Positions 17,162 through 47,424 of a DNA stretch of 64,000 nucleotides are shown here, piece by piece; position 1 is the stretch's first letter, and each line of letters opens with the position of its first letter. The notes beneath the pieces are model-generated. The model was not told where the DNA came from. It saw only the letters and a program-made list of their open reading frames with translations, and searched no databases. This stretch comes from Pelagomonas calceolata (lineage: Eukaryota). Made by a program: the position numbers and the translations under genes. Location of the stretch: contig CAKKNE010000005.1 in NCBI GenBank assembly GCA_918797485.1, positions 3,596,001 to 3,660,000 on the forward strand, written 5' to 3'.

Positions 17162-17971
17162 TTACGAGATGGCGCAGCACGTCTCCCGGGACGTCTTCTT
17201 CACTGGGCGGCTGTTCTGGAAGGTCGTGCCGCCAAACATGTTGCGCGTCTTCTTCACTGGGCGGCTGTTCTGGAAGGTCGTGCATATATTGTAGTCTGGG
17301 TGGCCAAACATGTTGCAAGTATCGCAGTCTGGCCTAAGTTGCCAGTCGCCGAGCGGCTGGTTGAACGCCGAGGCGCTGTAGAACATCGAGCCCATACTCG
17401 TGACGTTGTCGACCCGCCAGTCGTTCAGCGGCTGGTTGAACGACCTGGCGCAGAGGAACATGCAGTGCATAGTCGTGACGTTGTCGACCCGCCAGTCGTT
17501 CAGCGGCTGGTTGAACGACTTGGCGCCGTGGAACATCGAGCTCATATTCGTGACCTTGTCGACCCGCCAGTTGCCGATCGGTTGATTGAACGACGAGGCG
17601 CCCATGAACATCCACTTCATCGACGTGACGCCGGAGGTGTCCCACGTACCGATGTCGTCGTTGAAGGCCCGCTGATTCTCGAAGAGCTTGCTCATGTCAG
17701 AGACCCGGCTCGTATTCCAGGTCGAAATGTGTGGCAGGCCCTCGCGGTCGCCGCCGCACCAGCGCGCCACCCGTTTTCGCAGCGTCTTGTTCGTGAGCGC
17801 CGGGCCCTCTCCGAGCACGACGCCGCCGGTCTCTGCTTCCGCCGTCCCCTCCGGCATGACTTCTTCTTCCCGCGGCGCCGCCTCGCCCTCCGCCGCCACC
17901 GCTGGCTCCTGCTCCATAGATATCGCCGCCGGCGCTTGCTCTGCTTGCTCTGGCTCTATAAAGCCCATCAT
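17162..17971 (-). CDS. BspA/DUF285-type repeat protein with C-terminal CaaX-like motif
   Basis: ~25-aa repeats W(N/D)TSxVxxMxxMFxxAxSFNQPLNDW; ends CCAIS. Confidence 0.88.
   Translation of the reverse strand: MMGFIEPEQAEQAPAAISMEQEPAVAAEGEAAPREEEVMPEGTAEAETGGVVLGEGPALTNKTLRKRVARWCGGDREGLPHISTWNTSRVSDMSKLFENQRAFNDDIGTWDTSGVTSMKWMFMGASSFNQPIGNWRVDKVTNMSSMFHGAKSFNQPLNDWRVDNVTTMHCMFLCARSFNQPLNDWRVDNVTSMGSMFYSASAFNQPLGDWQLRPDCDTCNMFGHPDYNICTTFQNSRPVKKTRNMFGGTTFQNSRPVKKTSRETCCAIS
17192..17283. repeat. 54-bp-period duplication in the DUF285 gene C-terminus
   Basis: CGTCTTCTTCACTGGGCGGCTGTTCTGGAAGGTCGTGC at 17192 and 17246 (TTFQNSRPVKKT twice). Confidence 0.85.
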
Positions 17972-18117
17972 GATTGCTGCTCATGGACCGCGGACCGCTG
18001 CCCTGGCGGGCGGCCTCGCTCTGGCTGGCAGCGTTTTCCCTCACTCTGAGGTCAGGCTGCCCCTGTTCCTCTGGCAATGTCTCTGCAGCGGATCCGCTTC
18101 CGATTTTTTTAGTTCTT

Positions 18118-22232: not shown

Positions 22233-23048
22233 TTACAAAACCCACAGCCCCTTCTCGACGAACGCCCTGTGCTTCGCGTCATGCCCATCTATCCAGTTCG
22301 CGTGGGCCACCACCACCGTTCCTGGGTCCCGCGCCGACCAGCGCCGCCGGAAGAAGCTGCGCTTCGCCGAGACGAAGACCTCGGAATCGAGGGCGCAGGT
22401 CACCGGCTTGAAGAGCGGCGGCCGTTGCAGCGCCTGGTGGGCGCGGTTGAAGAGCGGCAGGTTGCGCCCGGGCTCCTTCGCGAGGAGCGCGGCCCACGTT
22501 TTCAACAGCTTCGCCGCGGCGTCCGTCGGCGTCAGGACCAGGAAGCCGGGGTTCAGCAAGCCCTTCTCGCGGTGCTGCGTCTGCGCCCACGCGGCGCAGT
22601 CTCCCGTAAAGTAGGGCCGCGGGTCCTTGAGCCAGAACACGTCCAAGTCCGTGAAGATCAGCCGCGCGCGCGGGTCGTCGCCCCACTGGCGCCGCAGCGC
22701 CGCGTGGGCGCCGATGAGGTGCCGCGCGCGCCGGCTCATCAGCTGCGCGAAGCCGTCCGTGTAGAAGCCGAGCTCGCCGCGCGCGAGCGGCCGCGTGTCG
22801 CGCGACTGCGCCACGCGCCGATACGTGCCCGGTGGTGCGCTTTTACGCCACTGTTGCAAGTGATCTACAATGTCCGCGTCCTCGGCGATGGCGACGACGC
22901 CGATCTCTTGCTCGAGGCCGAGGTTCCCGAGCTGCGCCGCCCAATTATCAAAGAAGTCGCGGTAGTGCATGGAGCACGCGACGACGGCTACGGTCAAGGG
23001 CGGCCGCGCCACCGCTGCGCCCAGGCTAAGGAGCAGCAGCCGCTTCAT
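22233..23048 (-). CDS. Nucleotide-diphospho-sugar transferase (GT77-like), secretory
   Basis: Signal peptide; FTDLDVFWLKDP DxD motif; LNPGF; HANW..K. Confidence 0.85.
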   Translation of the reverse strand: MKRLLLLSLGAAVARPPLTVAVVACSMHYRDFFDNWAAQLGNLGLEQEIGVVAIAEDADIVDHLQQWRKSAPPGTYRRVAQSRDTRPLARGELGFYTDGFAQLMSRRARHLIGAHAALRRQWGDDPRARLIFTDLDVFWLKDPRPYFTGDCAAWAQTQHREKGLLNPGFLVLTPTDAAAKLLKTWAALLAKEPGRNLPLFNRAHQALQRPPLFKPVTCALDSEVFVSAKRSFFRRRWSARDPGTVVVAHANWIDGHDAKHRAFVEKGLWVL

Positions 23049-23381: not shown

Positions 23382-24038
23382 ATGTCGGCCGTCGCTGCCT
23401 CAAAGCCGCCGGCGCGCGGCACCTTTGTGGTGTTCGAGGGCGTTGATAGGGCCGGCAAGAGCACGCAGTGCAAGCTCCTCGCCGAGGGGTTGCGGAAGCG
23501 GGGCCGCGAGGCGACGCTCATCAACTTCCCGGACCGGACGACGGGCGTCGGCCAGCTCATCGACAAGTACCTGCGGAAGGAGGTCGAGCTCGACGATAGA
23601 GCTGTGCACCTCATGTTCTCGGCGAACCGCTGGGAGGCGGCGCAATCGATCAAGGACCTGCTGGAGAGCGGCGTCGACGTGGTCTGCGACCGCTACGCGT
23701 TCTCGGGCGTCGCCTTCTCCGCGGCGAAAGAGTCGATCGACGATTTGGACTGGTGCAAGGCGCCGGACGCGGGCCTCCCGGCGCCGGACGTCGTCGTGTT
23801 CCTCGAGATCCCGCCGGAGAAGGCCGAGGCGAGGTCGGGCTTCGGCAACGAGCGCTACGAGGTCTCGGACATGCAGGTCCGCGTCGCGGCGAACTTTGGC
23901 AAACTCGTGACGCCGTGCTGGCGCAAGATCGACGCCGCGCGGCCCATCGACGAGGTCCGCGCCGACGTCGAGCGCTGCGTCCTCGCCGCCGCGGAGGTCG
24001 CCTGTTCTTCGCCGGTCAAGACGCTCTGGGAGGACTAG
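23382..24038 (+). CDS. DTYMK: Thymidylate (dTMP) kinase
   Basis: FEGVDRAGKSTQ P-loop, FPDRTT, HLMFSANRWE, CDRYAFSGVAFS, GNERYE. Confidence 0.96.
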   Translation: MSAVAASKPPARGTFVVFEGVDRAGKSTQCKLLAEGLRKRGREATLINFPDRTTGVGQLIDKYLRKEVELDDRAVHLMFSANRWEAAQSIKDLLESGVDVVCDRYAFSGVAFSAAKESIDDLDWCKAPDAGLPAPDVVVFLEIPPEKAEARSGFGNERYEVSDMQVRVAANFGKLVTPCWRKIDAARPIDEVRADVERCVLAAAEVACSSPVKTLWED

Positions 24039-24099
24039 TGCCGTCGCCCCGCCTTAAGAATATAACGAATGACTTACGAACGAACGAGAACAACAAAAA

Positions 24100-26013
24100 C
24101 TAGCCGCGCCCCGACGGCGACTTACGAGTCCGCCGCGCGGCCTCGACGGCCCGCAGCGCCCGTGTGCGGTCCAGGACGGACCCGCGCCGACACAGCCGCA
24201 TGCGGTCGACGCGCGTCCGGAACTTGCGCCACTCGCACAAATGGACCTGCAGGTCGAAGGGCGTCACAGAATCCGAAACCTGCTCCACACAAAGCCCGAA
24301 GCGCGCCCGCGCCGCGCCACCGACGAAGCGCAGCATGGGCCTCAATCTAGGCTCGAGCCGATCCAACGCCTCCTCGTCCAACTGCGCCGTCAGCGCATCC
24401 AACAACACCGCGCGGTGCGCCGACCGCGCGCGCGCCTGGACATGAGGATACAAATAATCAAAGGCCTGCTCCGCGCCGTCGCCCACGGCGCAGGACGCAT
24501 CTAATAAATGCGCTTGCGGGAAGGCGAGGTGCGTGCTTACCAAAAACATCTTTGCCATGGTCGGCCCGACCTCCCGCTCCGCGAGCAGCTCGCCCTCGAG
24601 CTTGACTCGTAAAGCGTCGCCTATTACCGCATCCTTCGCGAGCTGCCCCGACTCGAAGAAGTTCCTCCCGAGGCCTTTCTCGAGGAACGCGTGGACCCTT
24701 CTCCCGAGTTCCGCGAAGCGCGCCGTGCGGTCCACAATATAAAAGACAAATTCCGAACCCGCCGCGCCCGCCGGCGGGTGGCACTGGTAGCACGTCGTGT
24801 GGAGCTTCTTGCCCCGCAGTCGATACGCCTCGTAGCGCCGGCAGAGGGCGCCGCCTCTCCGTAAAGCTTCGAACGGCTTTTGTATTAACAGCTGGCCTAA
24901 CGCCGCGTCCTCCTCGGACGCGTGCTGCTCGAAAAGAGGTCTGAGTAAAGTCTCGAACAACTCGATGTCCCGCGAGCCGCTAAAGGCGAACGTGACTACG
25001 GATCGAGATAGCTCGTCCGACAGCCGCGGCAGCCGCCGGACCACTTCCAACAGATATCTTTCATGCGCACCGAGCGCGCAGTGCCAGGGCATCCACTTGT
25101 CGCCGCGCGCGCAGGGGCCCGTCAGGAACGCCTCGACGAGCGGCTCGCTCGATTTCAGATCTTCCGATTGAGTAATAGAGGCGCATTCCCGGTCAAACAC
25201 ATCATAAGCCGTTCGTTTCAATGCAGAGCACCTACCACCACCACTCTCGATAACGATCTCCGCGTACTCGGACCGCAGCTGCAACAGAGCGAAATAAATC
25301 AGGTGGGCGGCCTCGTTCATGTCACACAGCACATCTTCGGGCGGCGGCGGCGGCGGCGGCCGTCGGCCTCGACGCTTGTCTTTGCGCGACCACTTCGCGA
25401 GCTCGTCGGGGTCCCAGTCGGCACTTTCCACGACTTCTATATCGTCGCCGTCTTCCGGCCAGTCCAGAAAATCCACGCTTCCATCTTCATCATATATAAT
25501 CTCCACACTTCCACCGGTCCGTTTCTTCTTGGGCGGCGGGTGGCAGCGGCAGACGACGGCAGGAAACCATTCTGCCGGTTTTGACTCGTCGTTCTCCGGG
25601 AAGGTGTGCACCCTGATTTTCGAGCCGACGGCGGGGGGCGGCTTCATATCTGTTATGCGGCGTCTCTTTATGGCTTTCTGGGGCGGTTTCGGGGTACGTA
25701 TTTGCCACAATTCACTCATCCGTTGTTCCGGTAGCGCTTGGGCCGGTTGGCGCTGTTCCGTGAGTAGAGGCAGAGGAGGTAATGCAGGTCGCGCGTAGTC
25801 CGGCGGGAGGCACCACGGCTCGGCCGGGAACTTCGTGACGCGTTCGGCGTCGGCGGCGGCGTAGGCCGGCGTGACGCGCGCGGGGCCCGATGGGGGCGCC
25901 ATGATGAGTGGGACGTCGGGCGGGGTCGCTGGCGCTTTTGCGGCGGGTGCGGGGACCGCGTTTGCGTTCGGTGGTGCTTGCAGAGCCATGCTGCTCTGCG
26001 GCTCGATTTCCAT
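24100..26013 (-). CDS. Tudor-like domain + putative aGPT-Pplase1 (HMUDK helical)-like DNA base-modification domain
   Basis: Tudor-like VGSKIRV..WFPAVV..IIYDEDGS; NLS-like KRRR; C-terminal GKKLHTTCY, VGPTMAK, VGDGAEQAF, DLQVHLCEWRKF. CDS is well supported; the family call is by motif recall only. Confidence 0.6.
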   Translation of the reverse strand: MEIEPQSSMALQAPPNANAVPAPAAKAPATPPDVPLIMAPPSGPARVTPAYAAADAERVTKFPAEPWCLPPDYARPALPPLPLLTEQRQPAQALPEQRMSELWQIRTPKPPQKAIKRRRITDMKPPPAVGSKIRVHTFPENDESKPAEWFPAVVCRCHPPPKKKRTGGSVEIIYDEDGSVDFLDWPEDGDDIEVVESADWDPDELAKWSRKDKRRGRRPPPPPPPEDVLCDMNEAAHLIYFALLQLRSEYAEIVIESGGGRCSALKRTAYDVFDRECASITQSEDLKSSEPLVEAFLTGPCARGDKWMPWHCALGAHERYLLEVVRRLPRLSDELSRSVVTFAFSGSRDIELFETLLRPLFEQHASEEDAALGQLLIQKPFEALRRGGALCRRYEAYRLRGKKLHTTCYQCHPPAGAAGSEFVFYIVDRTARFAELGRRVHAFLEKGLGRNFFESGQLAKDAVIGDALRVKLEGELLAEREVGPTMAKMFLVSTHLAFPQAHLLDASCAVGDGAEQAFDYLYPHVQARARSAHRAVLLDALTAQLDEEALDRLEPRLRPMLRFVGGAARARFGLCVEQVSDSVTPFDLQVHLCEWRKFRTRVDRMRLCRRGSVLDRTRALRAVEAARRTRKSPSGRG

Positions 26014-26274
26014 GTCCGGCGGCTCGTTTTTCGCTGTCTTTGCTGCTGGGGTGTGACGCTGTATTGTGGGCGTCCTTCGGCTAGCCCCCTCGCGTCGATT
26101 TTTGGCCTTTGCGAAGAGCACACTGCGCGAGAGCCGCCGGCGCCGCAGAGCCTGGCTCTAACAGACGTCCCGGCCGGGTGTCCCCGACGCATTGTTCGCC
26201 TGCGCCGCGCCGTCGACGCGACCCGCAAACGCAGCCCGCGACGCCGTCGACGCAATTGACACACAAAACACAAG

Positions 26275-27558
26275 TTACTCAGCAGCGAGCGCGTCCGCGA
26301 CCGCCAACAGTTGTAAGTGAGACGCGTACAGATCCAGGTACATGGCCAGCGAACATTCGTGCACGACCATGCGCGGTCCTAATAACCCTCTACAAAGCTT
26401 CTCCTTCTTCGTCCTCTGGATCGCGTCCCGCACGCTATCCTCGAAGTGCCACCTGTCCCGCTCGAGCACGGACAGCCAACAAGCCACGTCATACGGTTTA
26501 AAACCGTGCCAGTGCCACAAATAAGGCTGTTCCGGTGGGACCCTCATAAACCCTCGCGCGTTGTACTTCAAATCATCAAAGCTCTCCCACGCGTGCCAGT
26601 TCCCCTCGGAGACGTCCCTAAAAGGCGCCTTGTCGCGCCTCAACTCTTCCGCGCGCACCTTCTGCCGATAGAAGGTCTCGAGCATGCCCTGGTCGTACAT
26701 CATGAACTGCCACGCCTTCTCGTTGCCCCAATCTAGTAAGTTACCTCTATCGGCTAACATCCTAGGCACGTTCATGTACATGACGCCACTATTTAAACCC
26801 CATATACTGAAAACTTCGGTCCCGGCCAGGAACACGGCCGGCTCGTCGTCCTTCAAGGGGTGCTTGCAGCACTTTGGGTTCGGCCAGCCCCGCGGACACC
26901 CGCGGCACACCGTGAGTTGATTATGCGCGGGCCAATCTCGAGCAAATATAACGTCCGTGTCCGTGTATAGCACGTAGGTCTTGTCGATGTTATGCTGCTC
27001 GAAGATTGGTTTGAGCACCGTAGCCGCAACCAAAGGTACATCTAACCTACCAAAGGCACCCACGGAAACGTGGCCCTGCTTCGACTTTCGGATCTTCAGA
27101 GGTATGTCCGCATAGAAACTGAGACGCCACTTCAGCACATGCGTCCCCGCCCTTTTCAAAAAGCGCACTAACCTATCATCTGGCTCCTCGACGTCTTGAT
27201 GCGGCAAAAACGTATACAAAAAGAAAGGGTAGAGCGTCGGCGCATTGAGCCGCGCCGACGCCGTCGCCGCCCGCGCGAAGTCGACGTACGTCGCGCTGAC
27301 TTCGTCGTCGGGCTTGGACATCGACATGAACCACGCGACGCGGCGGCCTTCGACGGGCGGCGGCAGGGCCGTCGTCGTCGTAGGAGGCACGAAGGGCTTG
27401 ATCCTAGCGCATTCGTGCTGCTGCTGGTTCTTGAGCGTTCTTATATTTACACGCTTGTCATTAGCCCAGCGCGTCGCGTTTGTATGTATGCTGTGCCAGT
27501 TCAGTATCGATGAATTGGAGGCGGCGGCACTCGTTATCAGTAGGAGGAGCCATCGCAT
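26275..27558 (-). CDS. GT-A fold glycosyltransferase (GT8-like), secretory
   Basis: Signal peptide; LYTDTDVIF, NSGVMYMN, DQGML, HWHGFKP; alternative start 27579. Confidence 0.85.
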   Translation of the reverse strand: MRWLLLLITSAAASNSSILNWHSIHTNATRWANDKRVNIRTLKNQQQHECARIKPFVPPTTTTALPPPVEGRRVAWFMSMSKPDDEVSATYVDFARAATASARLNAPTLYPFFLYTFLPHQDVEEPDDRLVRFLKRAGTHVLKWRLSFYADIPLKIRKSKQGHVSVGAFGRLDVPLVAATVLKPIFEQHNIDKTYVLYTDTDVIFARDWPAHNQLTVCRGCPRGWPNPKCCKHPLKDDEPAVFLAGTEVFSIWGLNSGVMYMNVPRMLADRGNLLDWGNEKAWQFMMYDQGMLETFYRQKVRAEELRRDKAPFRDVSEGNWHAWESFDDLKYNARGFMRVPPEQPYLWHWHGFKPYDVACWLSVLERDRWHFEDSVRDAIQRTKKEKLCRGLLGPRMVVHECSLAMYLDLYASHLQLLAVADALAAE

Positions 27559-27756
27559 GGCTGCCCGCCGCCGTCGCATGGTGCGCAATGGCAGCCCTAC
27601 GGGCCGTTTGCGGAGCCGCGCGGCCCGCGCCGTCCAAACTTTGCTTAGGTCTCGGGTTTTGCGCGATTAAATGGATCGGCGGCCAGAGCGCGTAGTGAAG
27701 TTGTTTCTTGATTCTCGCGAAGGTTGAGGCAGCATGGTCTGCGGCCGTCACCGCGC

Positions 27757-27780: not shown

Positions 27781-27932
27781 AGCAGCAACAAAGCAGCACA
27801 AGCTGGTTTAACCGACCCCACAGGCGTCCTGCGAACAGTAAGGTTTACGCGGGGTTCAGCTGGTAGTGGCCGCACAGCGCTCGAGAAGTTCAGCGCTCTG
27901 AGATTGCGAAAAGGCAGCTCCAGAACAAAAAG

Positions 27933-28493
27933 ATGGCTGAAAGGCGCCCGGCTGCCGCCGCGCCACCCGCGAAGAAAGCCAAGCGAGAAAAAGTAGGCGT
28001 CGGCGTCGGCGTCGTCGTCACGAAGGGCCGGCCGCGCGTCGCGAACGGCACGGTCTCCGACTTCCGCATCCTCGTCGGCCTGCGCAAGGGCAGCCACGGC
28101 GCGGGCCAGTGGGCGCTGCCCGGCGGCTGGCTCGAGAAGGGCGAGGAGTTCCTGGATTGTGCGTTAAGGGAGCTGCGCGAGGAGACGGGCATCGCGCCGA
28201 GCGACTCGGACCTGCCCACTCGCGGCGAGTCGAAGGCTCGCGCCGCGGGCACGCTGCCCTTCGTGGCGAATAATACCCAGATGGACGGCGTCCACTCGGT
28301 GACGGTCTTCTGCTACGTGAAGCTCAAGGACGCGAGGACGGAGGCGCGCGTCGAGGAGCCGGACAAGTGCGAGGAGTGGCGCTGGTGCTCGCGCGAGGAG
28401 CTCGCCGAGCTGCCGCTCTTCCCTCCATTAAAGGCGTTGCTCGAGACGGACGAGGGGCGCCACGCGCTCAACGTCGTCGACTTCCTCGGGTGA
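27933..28493 (+). CDS. Nudix hydrolase (NUDT15/plant NUDX1-like)
   Basis: RKGSHGAGQWALPGGWLEKGE..ALRELREETG Nudix box; EPDKCEEWRW..LFPPL. Confidence 0.92.
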   Translation: MAERRPAAAAPPAKKAKREKVGVGVGVVVTKGRPRVANGTVSDFRILVGLRKGSHGAGQWALPGGWLEKGEEFLDCALRELREETGIAPSDSDLPTRGESKARAAGTLPFVANNTQMDGVHSVTVFCYVKLKDARTEARVEEPDKCEEWRWCSREELAELPLFPPLKALLETDEGRHALNVVDFLG

Positions 28494-43547: not shown

Positions 43548-46500
43548 TTAAAAAGCCACCGTGTGCACCTCGACGCGCCGGTTCAGGTGCTTCAGGGGCC
43601 CCTCCGTGTCGTCGACGAGGCGCCTCGAGCCAGCAAGGCCCGCGGCGTGGACCCTTTCACTCGAAACACCAGCTTCTTCCAAGTAGCGCGCGACGGCCTC
43701 GGCCCGTCGCCGAGAGAACGCCGACGCGCCACCACTCCCCCCAAAGTCCTTGGCACACCGGTTGTTCGCGCACACATAACTACCATCGCACTGTAGGCCA
43801 CATTTGGAATTGGTGTGGCCCTCGAGGCGAATGGCTATGGAAGGATGCTTTTTCAGAACGGAAGCGAGCTGATCTAACAACGTGAAGGAGGCGTCGACGA
43901 TCACGTCGCGGTTCCCCTCGAAGTGCACCGGACCTGAAAGCCAGAGCCGATGCGCCGCCGCGTCCACCGCCACACAACACGCCGCTTTGGTGGGGTCGGC
44001 CTCGCCTTCATACAATCCTGCTTGAACGCCACCGAAGCGCGCCGCTAAAGGTGCGAGTGCACATTTCTTGCACACCACCACGTTATCGTCGGTGTAATCA
44101 TCAGAATCATTCGCGTCTAGGCCACACACGATGCACCTCTTACCAGACGTAGCATGGCCCCTCAAACACAATTCGAAAGCGTGCGCTTCGTGTAGAATGT
44201 AGCGCGGCGGCTCGCGCGAGAAGGCCATCGAGGCCACATCGGAAGGCGCGTTGCCCGTCTTTGTGGCATAGGCGAGCACGACCCGTTCTTCGTCGTCGTC
44301 GACGTCTAGCGAGAGAGTGGCCGTGTTTGAATCGACGGCGTGTTTCGTGTGCCAGTGTTTGCCACCATCTAGCGACACATGGAGTGTGGCACCGGGAGTG
44401 GGGCAAGTCGCATCGACCCGCAAAGCCCACGGATTGGAAGCCGTATTCAGGATCATCGGCTGCTCGCAGGCGTTTCTTAACAACTCGGCCTTCTTGCGGA
44501 TCCGTTCCGCTTCTCTCGCTTGCACCCTTCTTCGTCTAGCCGCGTCATCATCGTTGTTCGCGAGCCGGTCCCTTGCTTCCCGCGCTTCCCTTAATGTTCT
44601 TGCAATAAGATCGTTGTAGTTCTGGGATAGAGAAGAAACAGTACCCTCGGAGATCTCGACGTAGGACGGACTTTCCTGCTTCGGCGGTGAAACCGGGCCA
44701 GGAGACGTAAATACGGAAGCCCCATCCAACCTAGCTGCCCTACGACGAGTAGGCCGCCTCCTCTCATCGTAGGCCGCGCGAATGGACTGCACCTCTAATT
44801 GTTGCGACCGCTGCCTGAGTAACTGACTAGGGCCGTCCGTCGCGACGTTTCGTAATTCACTTTTGGCGTCGATCAGAGGCGCGGCCGTCTTCTCCATCGA
44901 CGCTACCAGAGACTCGCGGCGCCACTTTACGCCCAGTCCCGTGTCCTCTATTGTACTTTTCTGGACCTGGGACGCCTCCCGGAGCATCGCCATGCGGGAT
45001 TTGATGTTTGGCGTCGCCTTGACTTCACTGATCGATTCCTTCTCCACGTGATTCGGGGTCGCGTCCTGCTGTAGAGAAGCGATTTTGGCCGAGATGGCGT
45101 CGCTCGGCTTTATCGAGGAGGACCGCCGCTTGGGCGTAATTAACTCGGAAGATTTTTGGGGCGGCGTCGACCAGCGGCGCCGTCGTTGGGGCGTGTCGCC
45201 GGCCTCGGAGAAGGACGGTGTAGTAGAGGGGTTCCAGCGATTCTGGGCCCACTTGCGCGCGCCGGAGGGCGGCGACGTCGTTTCCTCCGCAGGTGTGTCC
45301 GCGGGTGTGTCGGCCGTGGTAGGATTCCACCGGCGCTGGGCCCACTGCCGCGCGCCGGACGGCGGCGTCACCGGCGCGTTCTGCTTTGTGGGAGACGCGG
45401 GGTTCCAGCGCTTCTTAGCCCAGTCGCGGCGGGGCGATACCGAAGGCGCCGCGACGATGCGCGCCGCTTCGCTCGCGTCGGGCGCCTCGGCCTCGACGTC
45501 CCTAGATGGAGAGTCCGTGACGGGCGTCGGCGGCAGCTCGGGCGCGCCCACGGGCTCCGTCGGCGAGGCGGGCGTTTTCTGTTGAGACGCCTCGTACTTC
45601 GAGATCTGGGCTCTCAAAAAGGTCTTCGCCGCGGCGTGCTGGTCCTCCACTACGCCGGTGCCCGGCGGCAGCGCGTCGCCTACCAGAGCGGTGGTGCCGC
45701 GGCCGACGACCCACGCCGTCGGCTTCGGCGACAGCGGTGCTCGCTTCCGCGCCTTCGGCGCCGCCGGCGACTGGAATAACCCGCGGCCAGGCGGCAGCGC
45801 GTCGCCGACGCGCGCGGCGCTGCCCGCGCCGACGACCCATGCTGTTGGTTTTGGTGATGGCGGCGCCGGCGGCGCCGCGACCCGCACGCCGGTCCCGGGG
45901 GGCACCGCTTTACAAACGTAGGCCGGGGCGCCGTCGCCGACGGTCCAGGCGGTGGGCCGCGGCTGCGGTTTCGGCGGTCGAACGGCGTCGGCGACGGCGA
46001 GCGAGCGGCTCTCGAGCGGCTCCGCCGGCGGTCGCCGCACTGCCGCGGGGATATGCAGCAGCATGGACGTCGCCGACTGCTCCAGCGTCGGCCCCATGTC
46101 CGAGACTCGCACGACGGCTGGCGGCGCCTCCGGGCCCGCGGGCAGGTGGAAGAGCGTCGCCGTCGCGGTCTGGGCCAGCCGCGCCCGTGGCACGGCGGCC
46201 GCGGGCGAGTAGAGCGTCGCCGCGTCCTCGCCCGCCGCGCCGACCGCCGGAAGCTCCGCGGGCTGCAGCGGCTCGGAGCGGCGCCGGGGGCTCTGGTACG
46301 TCAGGGCGCCGCCGCCCGTGACCCAGGCCGTCGGCCGCGGCAGGGGCGCCGTGGGCGAGTAGAGGGCGTCCGCGTCCTCGCCGGCGTCGCCGACGGCCGG
46401 GAGCGCCGCGGCGTTCAGCTCGAAGCGGCGCGGCACCGGCCGCGCGTAGGTCATGTGGCCATCACCCGTGACCCAGGCCGTCGGCCGCGGCTGCGGTATC

Positions 46501-47126
46501 ACCACGGGCGTGCGGCGCGCCACCGGCCGACGCGGCGGCGTCGGCGGGTTCGGCAGCGCCCGTTCTAGAATTGCCGCGGGCGACGCTATCGGCGCCACGG
46601 CGGCGAAGGGCGAGGCCGGCCTTTTCAAAGGCATGGTCTCTAGCCGTTTCACAGGCGACATGGCGGCGAGGACGGCCTCTTCGCCGGAGTCCACGGGCTC
46701 GGCCGTCGCCGACGAGGCCTCGGACGCCGTCGACTCGTCGTCCTCGTCATTGTCGAGGGCTTTCGCCAGCGCCGAGCTGCGCATCGAGAGCTGGACGTCC
46801 AGCGCGGCCTTGGGCGCGTGCCGCATTAATAATGGAGGCGTGTCGTGGCGGCTGGGCGGCGAGTCGTCCTCGTAGCCGTCGACCGGCGGCGGCGGTGGCC
46901 TCGGCGCTTCGGTTTGGGGCGGCGCGCGCGTCGGCTTGAAGTACGCGCCGAGCCCACCGAGCCACGAGCGCGCCGGGGGCTCTTCCTTCGTTTCTTCGCG
47001 GAAGAACTCGACTACCGGCGAGTCGTCGGCGAGGCTGTCGCCCAGCGACCCCGTCTCCGAGAAAGGCAGGCTGTCGCGGCGTGGACCACCCGTTGATGGC
47101 GTCACGCAGGGGGGCGGACCGCCCAT
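43548..47126 (-). CDS. Large Pro/Ser-rich protein with C-terminal OmpA-like domain
   Basis: VHFE..LLDQLASVLKKHP..IRLEGHTN..SRRRAEAVARYL..GV..NRRVE; internal PTAWxxG and WAxxRWNP repeats. Confidence 0.8.
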   Translation of the reverse strand: MGGPPPCVTPSTGGPRRDSLPFSETGSLGDSLADDSPVVEFFREETKEEPPARSWLGGLGAYFKPTRAPPQTEAPRPPPPPVDGYEDDSPPSRHDTPPLLMRHAPKAALDVQLSMRSSALAKALDNDEDDESTASEASSATAEPVDSGEEAVLAAMSPVKRLETMPLKRPASPFAAVAPIASPAAILERALPNPPTPPRRPVARRTPVVIPQPRPTAWVTGDGHMTYARPVPRRFELNAAALPAVGDAGEDADALYSPTAPLPRPTAWVTGGGALTYQSPRRRSEPLQPAELPAVGAAGEDAATLYSPAAAVPRARLAQTATATLFHLPAGPEAPPAVVRVSDMGPTLEQSATSMLLHIPAAVRRPPAEPLESRSLAVADAVRPPKPQPRPTAWTVGDGAPAYVCKAVPPGTGVRVAAPPAPPSPKPTAWVVGAGSAARVGDALPPGRGLFQSPAAPKARKRAPLSPKPTAWVVGRGTTALVGDALPPGTGVVEDQHAAAKTFLRAQISKYEASQQKTPASPTEPVGAPELPPTPVTDSPSRDVEAEAPDASEAARIVAAPSVSPRRDWAKKRWNPASPTKQNAPVTPPSGARQWAQRRWNPTTADTPADTPAEETTSPPSGARKWAQNRWNPSTTPSFSEAGDTPQRRRRWSTPPQKSSELITPKRRSSSIKPSDAISAKIASLQQDATPNHVEKESISEVKATPNIKSRMAMLREASQVQKSTIEDTGLGVKWRRESLVASMEKTAAPLIDAKSELRNVATDGPSQLLRQRSQQLEVQSIRAAYDERRRPTRRRAARLDGASVFTSPGPVSPPKQESPSYVEISEGTVSSLSQNYNDLIARTLREAREARDRLANNDDDAARRRRVQAREAERIRKKAELLRNACEQPMILNTASNPWALRVDATCPTPGATLHVSLDGGKHWHTKHAVDSNTATLSLDVDDDEERVVLAYATKTGNAPSDVASMAFSREPPRYILHEAHAFELCLRGHATSGKRCIVCGLDANDSDDYTDDNVVVCKKCALAPLAARFGGVQAGLYEGEADPTKAACCVAVDAAAHRLWLSGPVHFEGNRDVIVDASFTLLDQLASVLKKHPSIAIRLEGHTNSKCGLQCDGSYVCANNRCAKDFGGSGGASAFSRRRAEAVARYLEEAGVSSERVHAAGLAGSRRLVDDTEGPLKHLNRRVEVHTVAF

Positions 47127-47424
47127 TGTGTGCCTGGTGTGGTGTGCTTTTGTCGTGGGCTGTGTCTCGTCCAAGGGCAGCCCGAGGCGGAACCTATTGA
47201 TGATTCTGCGTCGGTGGCTCTACTGATGTTTCTGCCTCATCGTAAAGAAGCGGCGGGCAGCCGAGACATCACACGTTTTTGCGGGCAGCGCCAAGACACC
47301 GAGACACCCGATTATTTTGCTGTGCCGCTAGAAATTCAGAAATTTACCAGTCCGCAAGGCGTTTGAACAGGGTTATAGATGTAAAGCATTGATGAGTGGC
47401 CGCTGGTCAGTTTCCTGCTTGATT

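Follow-up and report, generated by a model that had tools for sequence, protein, structure and literature searches.

The gene and its surroundings

The window, by which we mean the whole stretch of 64,000 nucleotides of Pelagomonas calceolata DNA that was analysed, is gene-dense, with about 63% GC. A scan of 44 other ORFs, chosen by composition out of 118 ORFs of at least 170 residues, found genes that are ordinary for a eukaryotic nucleus, including XPG, kinesin, KIN17 and dynein. The gene described here lies at 24100–26013 on the minus strand. It is an intronless ORF that starts with ATG, stops with TAG and encodes 637 residues, comprising a Pro/Ala low-complexity N-terminus, a Tudor-like barrel, a basic linker, a helical domain resembling aGPT-Pplase1, and a basic tail. 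A viral insert was rejected as its source: both the GC content and the neighbouring genes are ordinary, and weak scans with two short patterns each gave no close relative in viral or prokaryotic genome contigs. Two other ORFs in the window have a bacterial flavour, namely a DUF285 repeat protein (17165–17980, minus strand) and a long ORF with a terminal OmpA-family domain (43551–47219, minus strand).

The coding strand is covered by stranded poly(A) reads with no internal joint, in three runs that all come from one sample and of which 6–12% each was read. A single contig runs across 24066–26131 with zero differences and includes the whole ORF. Values of dN/dS are 0.04–0.14 for the core (against three orthologous loci), 0.02 and 0.12 for the barrel (against two), and 0.14 and 0.45 for the N-terminus. 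The gene is under purifying selection.

The nearest genes are a thymidylate kinase (23382–24038, plus strand), which is convergent to the gene, a nucleotide-diphospho-sugar transferase (22233–23048, minus strand), an ORF with no Pfam match but a glycosyltransferase-like look (26275–27666, minus strand) and a NUDIX hydrolase (27867–28493, plus strand). The gene order is kept in the related locus L049 and lost in L051. The thymidylate kinase was considered as a partner and rejected, since it is a neighbour only in L048–L050 (70–98% identical); in L051 (54% identical) a lipoxygenase-like gene and a WS/DGAT gene stand there instead.

Domain organisation

An earlier note on this DNA, made from the sequence alone, had described basic patches resembling nuclear localisation signals, and these are present at residues 113–119, 161–165 and 210–218 (25657–25677, 25519–25533 and 25360–25386, minus strand). 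They may direct nuclear import of the product. The Tudor-like barrel described in the same note could be placed at residues 126–196 (25426–25638, minus strand), although its profile scores are weak. When the barrel profile was compared with the PDB, all 11 matches were to the UHRF1 Tudor domain, with a best E-value of 0.008. Agenet was matched in three of eight family members, with a best E-value of 8e-6, the window's own copy giving no match; Tudor scores lie under the curated cut-offs, as for the relative P0011 (21.5 bits against a cut-off of 27). The barrel is common to nine of the ten rows of the clade of Tudor-fused proteins. Three candidate aromatic cage residues, W149, Y174 and W185, are invariant, and a Phe or Tyr at position 150 is kept in eight rows. 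These weak but consistent matches point to a Tudor- or Agenet-like barrel of the Royal family.

Members of the wider family are repeatedly fused to other modules of nuclear type: Tudor, the NPK domain discussed below, and weakly matching MBD. MBD-like domains occur at the N-termini of P0082, P0123 and P0148 of the dinoflagellate clade, two of them with Pfam E-values of 0.014–0.019. In the same clade, the C-termini of P0061, P0089, P0097, P0101, P0123, P0131 and P0154 carry a duplicated domain that has no Pfam match and that may be AP2-like. P0076 and P0088 join the family domain to a GDSL lipase or a RING-IBR module; these joins could be genuine or could be chimeras created by assembly.

Relationship to aGPT-Pplase clade 1

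The C-terminal part of the protein (residues ~230–611; 24181–25326, minus strand) is an all-helical domain of helix-hairpin-helix (HhH) type, homologous to aGPT-Pplase clade 1 (PF18723, HMUDK_hel). Its 380 residues have no direct Pfam match, and the window protein as a whole has no match in Pfam, PHROG, PDB sequences or phage tblastn. The ESM Atlas placed 26 of 30 matches in PF18723 HMUDK_hel clusters, the best at 0.96, with a recognition value of 1800 that is below the 2300 mark and therefore weak taken alone. PF18723 was matched by six of 82 relatives, the best with 24.2 bits and an E-value of 2.5e-5; the cut-off of 25 bits is reached neither by the window protein nor by any of the 82. PF18724 (ADDT) is matched by none of the 82 relatives and not by the window protein.

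The earlier note had called for a profile comparison with the aGPT-Pplases. An hhalign run with 85 family rows against 16 phage clade-1 proteins gave a probability of 93.5% (E 2.3e-7) across 214 columns, and the four motifs named in that note were all in register. In 21 controls, the reversed profile gave 0.09% and the best of 20 column shuffles 1.5%. Narrow templates gave weak results (13.6% and 42.5%). The family scored 1.7% against ADDT, represented by two template sequences; clade 1 scores as low against ADDT, so this comparison does not discriminate. One unverified and unannotated phage record, L041 (PP337211.1), was left out of the templates because the reading frames of its M6-like clade-1 region are broken, probably by sequencing error.

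The four motifs occur in the order claimed, at residues 401–409 (24787–24813), 482–490 (24544–24570), 509–522 (24448–24489) and 587–598 (24220–24255), all on the minus strand. They are not chance resemblances, being near-invariant columns of a family with 208 representatives at E≤0.001. The first, containing T406, aligns with TGAY of clade 1; the second, with T485 and K488, is the HhH hairpin and aligns with G.F.A of clade 1 and, by motif, with FGPW of the glycine:DNA transferase PUGT; the third, VGDGA, directly preceded by C508, aligns with GPGA. The fourth is QV.LCEW, in which C593 is encoded at 24235–24237.

Thus the kinship with clade 1 and HMUDK_hel that the earlier note had suspected is borne out by the Atlas, by Pfam applied to relatives, by hhalign and by fold searches alike, and the protein belongs to a divergent eukaryotic branch beside aGPT-Pplase clade 1. 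It shares the order of motifs, the CE motif and the predicted fold with M6 gp55, PhiW-14 gp72, PaMx11 gp50, PhiJL001 gp19 and the C-terminal part of SP10 gp186. However, identity to clade 1 is only about 10–16%, which is under the Pfam cut-off; the hairpin helix reads T..K where the phage proteins have F..Y[EQ]; and the algal proteins have an additional conserved Cys508 and form a separate, long-branch clade. Unlike the phage genes, the window gene is nuclear, fused to a Tudor-like domain and outside any cluster of modification genes. Profile-level homology with ordered motifs, an HhH-containing all-helical fold and the C-terminal Cys place the protein in the superfamily, while clade 1 and clade 2, each defined strictly, both leave it out. 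No 5hmdU pathway gene was found within the window; the NPK domain of paralogues offers an indirect link to such genes.

Predicted structure

The model of the helical domain has a pLDDT of 96 and a pTM of 0.93; an earlier fold based on five sequences, with a pLDDT of 58, was set aside. In a library of viral structures, clade-1 or HMUDK proteins take ranks 1–3, 6, 9 and 11, and ADDT takes rank 5. TM-scores are only 0.33–0.48, the best viral clade-1 matches being about 0.4. A structure search had been proposed in the earlier note, and its outcome is divided: clade-1 and HhH folds come out on top, but Foldseek returned nothing at E≤0.001 in either the PDB or the viral library.

In a PDB-wide structural alignment, the best 12 rows are QNG1 (two rows), PUGT and nine HhH DNA glycosylases, with Z-scores of 6.3–9.6. 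QNG1, a nucleoside hydrolase, is ranked first and is on a par with PUGT (Z 8.6, rmsd 4.6, 224 residues aligned). Z-scores of 8–10 are moderate, as helical proteins can reach such values by arrangement alone. The model gives the C-terminal domain an HhH fold like that of PUGT, whose structure is solved, and this resemblance is tied with that to QNG1. The helical scaffold and the hairpin are shared with the HhH-GPD DNA glycosylases (EndoIII, AGOG, AlkA) and with QNG1/DUF2419 (Z 5.5–9.6); no match between these proteins and the family was found at the sequence level.

Active-site residues

Conservation in the family is concentrated in a small number of residues. C593 is present in 69 of 70 rows and E594 in all 69; Q589 and V590 are present in 70 of 70, T485 in 75 of 75, K488 in 75 of 76 and H311 in 70 of 73. 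T406 and C508 are also near-invariant.

In clade 2, a Cys is the essential nucleophile of M6 gp51 and ViI gp247 (PMC8989533), and the equivalent Cys is essential in 15599 Pplase2 (PMC13458397). A required metal is held in clade 2 by a Glu-Thr pair, which is likewise reported to be essential in 15599 Pplase2 (PMC13458397); in PUGT these ligands are E243 and T244, four and three residues ahead of the Cys (PMC11472151). By motif spacing and the 1.7% alignment, C593 would be the positional equivalent of the clade-2 catalytic Cys, and Q589 and V590 those of the metal-binding Glu and Thr. The family therefore appears to share with clade 2 (PF18724: PaMx11 gp46, which is PUGT, 8Z2M; M6 gp51; ViI gp247; 15599 DADT) a two-lobed HhH fold and a Cys at the catalytic position. 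It differs in that the Glu-Thr ligands are replaced by Gln-Val, that a residue of the W146 type is missing at that position in the pelagophyte clade, and that PF18724 is not matched. A Gln at the position of the metal Glu is found in five of 16 true phage clade-1 proteins as well.

The earlier note had remarked that an expected N-terminal N..R..DR motif was missing, and none is present in the core. F.N..R occurs in all 16 phage clade-1 rows, in contrast to the F.N..R..D pattern in the family, which is found in one of 77 rows. At about the same place the algal proteins have the family-specific motif P[WFY]H....HE, containing H311, H317 and E318 (25060–25098, minus strand); the local profile alignment stops short of this point, and the register with F.N..R..D is our inference.

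Comparison with the HhH-GPD glycosylases was made using a presumed EndoIII register. Gly511, present in 73 of 74 rows and followed by Asp in 25 of 74, stands at what we take to be the place of the catalytic Asp, and a Thr in the family hairpin presumably stands at the place of the hairpin Lys. On this assumption, neither of the two glycosylase positions is kept in the algal family.

H311, H317, E318, K488, Q589 and C593 would share one pocket, and the active site reads as rebuilt rather than decayed. From the earlier suggestion that the protein might be divergent or inactive, the first part stands. Inactivity is not favoured, because the Cys-Glu pair and some ten other residues are near-invariant and because the gene is under purifying selection; judged by its residues, the protein is not obviously dead. 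Given that the Glu-Thr pair has become Gln-Val and that N..R..D has been replaced, its chemistry probably differs.

Distribution of the family

A profile built from five close relatives and run against 1.84 billion representatives gave the 208 representatives mentioned above. Family members were drawn from 150 of these matches that were listed, and 30 were looked up for their organism. An organism is named for eight of the 30, and all are pelagophytes (Aureococcus, Chrysophaeum, Aureoumbra) or dinoflagellates (Polarella and Symbiodinium, two each, and Polykrikos). The closest named relative of the window protein is from Aureococcus anophagefferens. The family may extend beyond these two groups. 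A search of genome contigs for close viral or prokaryotic relatives, a weak test with two short patterns for each, gave none.

The tree (77 family and 16 phage rows) has a long branch between the algal family and phage clade 1. The algal rows divide into a clade of 33, which contains the pelagophyte names, and a sister clade of 44, which contains all five named dinoflagellates. The Tudor-fused proteins form a single clade of ten rows (SH-aLRT 100). Because this was a quick tree, with SH-aLRT as its only support measure and a midpoint root, it names no donor. On these sequences the family is expanded in dinoflagellates, which bear TET/JBP-made 5hmU and also account for most of the distant rows to which an organism could be assigned.

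Fungi and stramenopiles are said to have been named, in Iyer 2013 or in Pfam, as carrying homologues of the superfamily. That eukaryotic homologues exist has been noted before (PMC5889632, citing Iyer 2013). No literature on algal or dinoflagellate aGPT-Pplases was found, and the term 'aGPT-Pplase1' was met only in two phage genome papers; the supplements of Iyer 2013 and PMC11572971 could list the family. What is new here is a branch invisible to Pfam, its expansion in dinoflagellates, its altered active site and its link to the NPK domain. The dinoflagellate expansion and the NPK link to phage 5hmdU clusters go beyond the earlier note.

The NPK domain and its phage context

A 55-residue NPK domain stands in place of the barrel in four rows, three from a second clade with pelagophytes in it and one from the dinoflagellate clade. 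The carriers among the paralogues are P0019, P0020 (two copies), P0024 and P0076; the window protein itself has no NPK domain. When P0020 was compared with 50,697 phage records, the sole match was PhiJL001 gp18 (E 0.03; by HMM, E 2.7e-10). The next gene downstream, whose start it overlaps, is gp19, a PF18723 gene; TAGT, Nmad5 and a gene resembling dUMP hydroxymethylase belong to the same cluster. The Atlas gave only leads below 0.9 for the NPK domain, and the idea that it corresponds to PaMx11 gp45 or to the gene preceding M6 gp51 was dropped, as no match was found.

Among eight further viral NPK loci, PF18723 lies within 5 kb in three, each time with TAGT and a thymidylate-synthase-like gene, and the latter two genes occur in four. 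Over all nine viral loci, a clade-1 gene stands beside NPK in four, always with glycosyltransferase and thymidylate-synthase-like genes; the other five have no PF18723 nearby, and two of these end just past the match. In this survey 51 of 89 candidate ORFs were put to Pfam, and all six frames were scanned with the clade-1 profile. The phage NPK copies are at L060:5833–6288 and in L062–L069, with two or three copies each in L065–L067.

Some 5hmdU phages thus keep as neighbours two genes that are fused in the algae. This link is independent of homology scores and ties the family to hydroxymethyl-uracil DNA; the numbers are small.

No M6-type kinase was detected with a three-sequence HMM in ten NPK stretches or in twelve eukaryotic stretches. 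The same HMM found 29 of 36 M6-like loci, a lenient control since these loci are close to the HMM source. Clade 1 can therefore, it is suggested, work without a nearby kinase. Within the 64-kb window, too, neither a partner 5-hmU DNA kinase nor TET/JBP was found. L060, L062, L063 and L068 combine clade-1, glycosyltransferase and thymidylate-synthase-like genes, with the M6-type kinase undetected, and a base-J-like glycosyl-hmU pathway is suggested for these phages. In L040 (LuckyBarnes gp38–39) a clade-1 gene is also clustered with a glycosyltransferase.

Proposed function

We propose, tentatively and at a little under an even chance, that 24100–26013 encodes a base-flipping enzyme that is tethered to chromatin and whose predicted substrate is thymine of the 5-hydroxymethyluracil type in DNA. 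The barrel would bind methylated histone tails and so bring the protein to chosen chromatin. The HhH hairpin would grip the DNA backbone and, as in PUGT, turn a pyrimidine out into the cleft that separates the two helical lobes. Cys593 would then attack C6 of a uracil substituted at C5, either 5hmU itself or a form activated by a phospho or glycosyl group, generating an exocyclic methylene, and the rebuilt pocket (H311, H317, E318, K488, Q589) would supply a reductant, or a nucleophile that is not glycine. The C5 substituent would thereby be exchanged or reduced, which would leave either a novel adduct of thymine or, in the case of erasure, thymine itself.

We hold processing or erasure of 5hmU to be likelier than amino-acid transfer, given that the Glu-Thr metal ligands are gone and that the phage clusters linked to NPK show no M6-type kinase nearby. 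Hypermodifying phages convert leftover 5hmdU to plain thymine ahead of packaging, and when the methylene intermediate is trapped with borohydride it is recovered as thymidine (PMC8989533). The clade-1 protein M6 gp55 is reported to be dispensable for glycine transfer in vitro (PMC8989533). In the parts of the literature consulted, phages included, no published activity for aGPT-Pplase clade 1 was found.

The same dispensability of M6 gp55 would suit a protein with no chemistry of its own, which would recognise 5hmU or some other modified base by flipping and binding it, and would link that base to histone marks. Such a non-catalytic reader would be consistent with the loss of both the Glu-Thr pair and F.N..R..D, with the absence of a partner kinase from the window and, by HMM scan, from the NPK loci, and with the repeated fusions to nuclear-type modules. 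We regard it as unlikely, as Cys, Glu, Lys, His and Gln residues are near-invariant over two deep clades, which is more in keeping with a catalytic site than with a binding pocket.

The nine HhH DNA glycosylases among the best 12 structural matches, and the invariant Lys close to the hairpin, raise the question of repair: a domesticated HhH glycosylase, or a direct reverser of oxidative thymine damage (5hmU, formyl-U), in pelagophytes with no epigenetic base. We know of no programmed 5hmU in pelagophytes, and no literature report of 5hmU, TET/JBP or the kinase was found for them, though the supplements of PMC11572971 and Iyer 2013 may list TET/JBP. Repair is nevertheless quite unlikely. The sequence affinity of the protein lies with clade 1, a Gly (73 of 74) and a Thr occupy, by the presumed EndoIII register, the positions of the catalytic Asp and the hairpin Lys, and excision of 5hmU is at odds with an expansion of the family in dinoflagellates, which keep it.

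The retained Cys and a fold near that of PUGT could equally belong to a hypermodification writer like those of clade 2, placing an amine or amino acid on 5hmU that a kinase has activated; TET/JBP and the kinase, in diverged form, would then be encoded elsewhere in the genome. This is improbable: the metal pair is lost, PF18724 is matched by none of 82 relatives, a P-loop motif was found in none of the 76 relatives checked, and candidates of 1170–3340 residues yielded no relative, the last being a weak test. Finally, the rank of QNG1 as top structural match, on a par with PUGT, and the frequent shift of DNA modifiers acquired by eukaryotes to RNA (PMC4738411) give a slim chance to RNA or free modified nucleosides as substrate, with the barrel binding methyl-arginine proteins of RNA complexes, but in the PDB the barrel profile matches nothing except the histone-reading UHRF1 Tudor, and the phage gene context is one of DNA modification.

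Implications

A chromatin-tethered enzyme acting on 5hmU-type thymine would have parallels among protists, in which thymine is likewise modified in the nucleus by kinetoplastid JBP1/2 with the J-glucosyltransferase (base J) and by dinoflagellate TET/JBP. The enzymes of these eukaryotic 5hmU systems, by contrast, are dioxygenases and glycosyltransferases. In dinoflagellates TET/JBP enzymes make 5hmU, of which the DNA contains a great deal (PMC11572971, cited in PMC13229309), and according to Marinov et al. further elaboration toward base J has not evolved there. The dinoflagellate 5hmU literature, in the portions consulted, mentions no step past 5hmU and no Pplase. It is possible, though doubtful, that pelagophyte nuclear DNA contains programmed 5hmU or hypermodified thymine and that this phage-derived family is a step past TET/JBP, providing chromatin-targeted writers or erasers in pelagophytes and dinoflagellates.

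Were this so, a shared Cys chemistry would account for the conversion of leftover 5hmdU to thymine in phages. The family provides named candidates for the fate of dinoflagellate 5hmU beyond its synthesis and for the role of phage clade 1, with Cys593 as the residue to mutate, and would predict that a very abundant group of marine algae has a thymine modification not yet reported.
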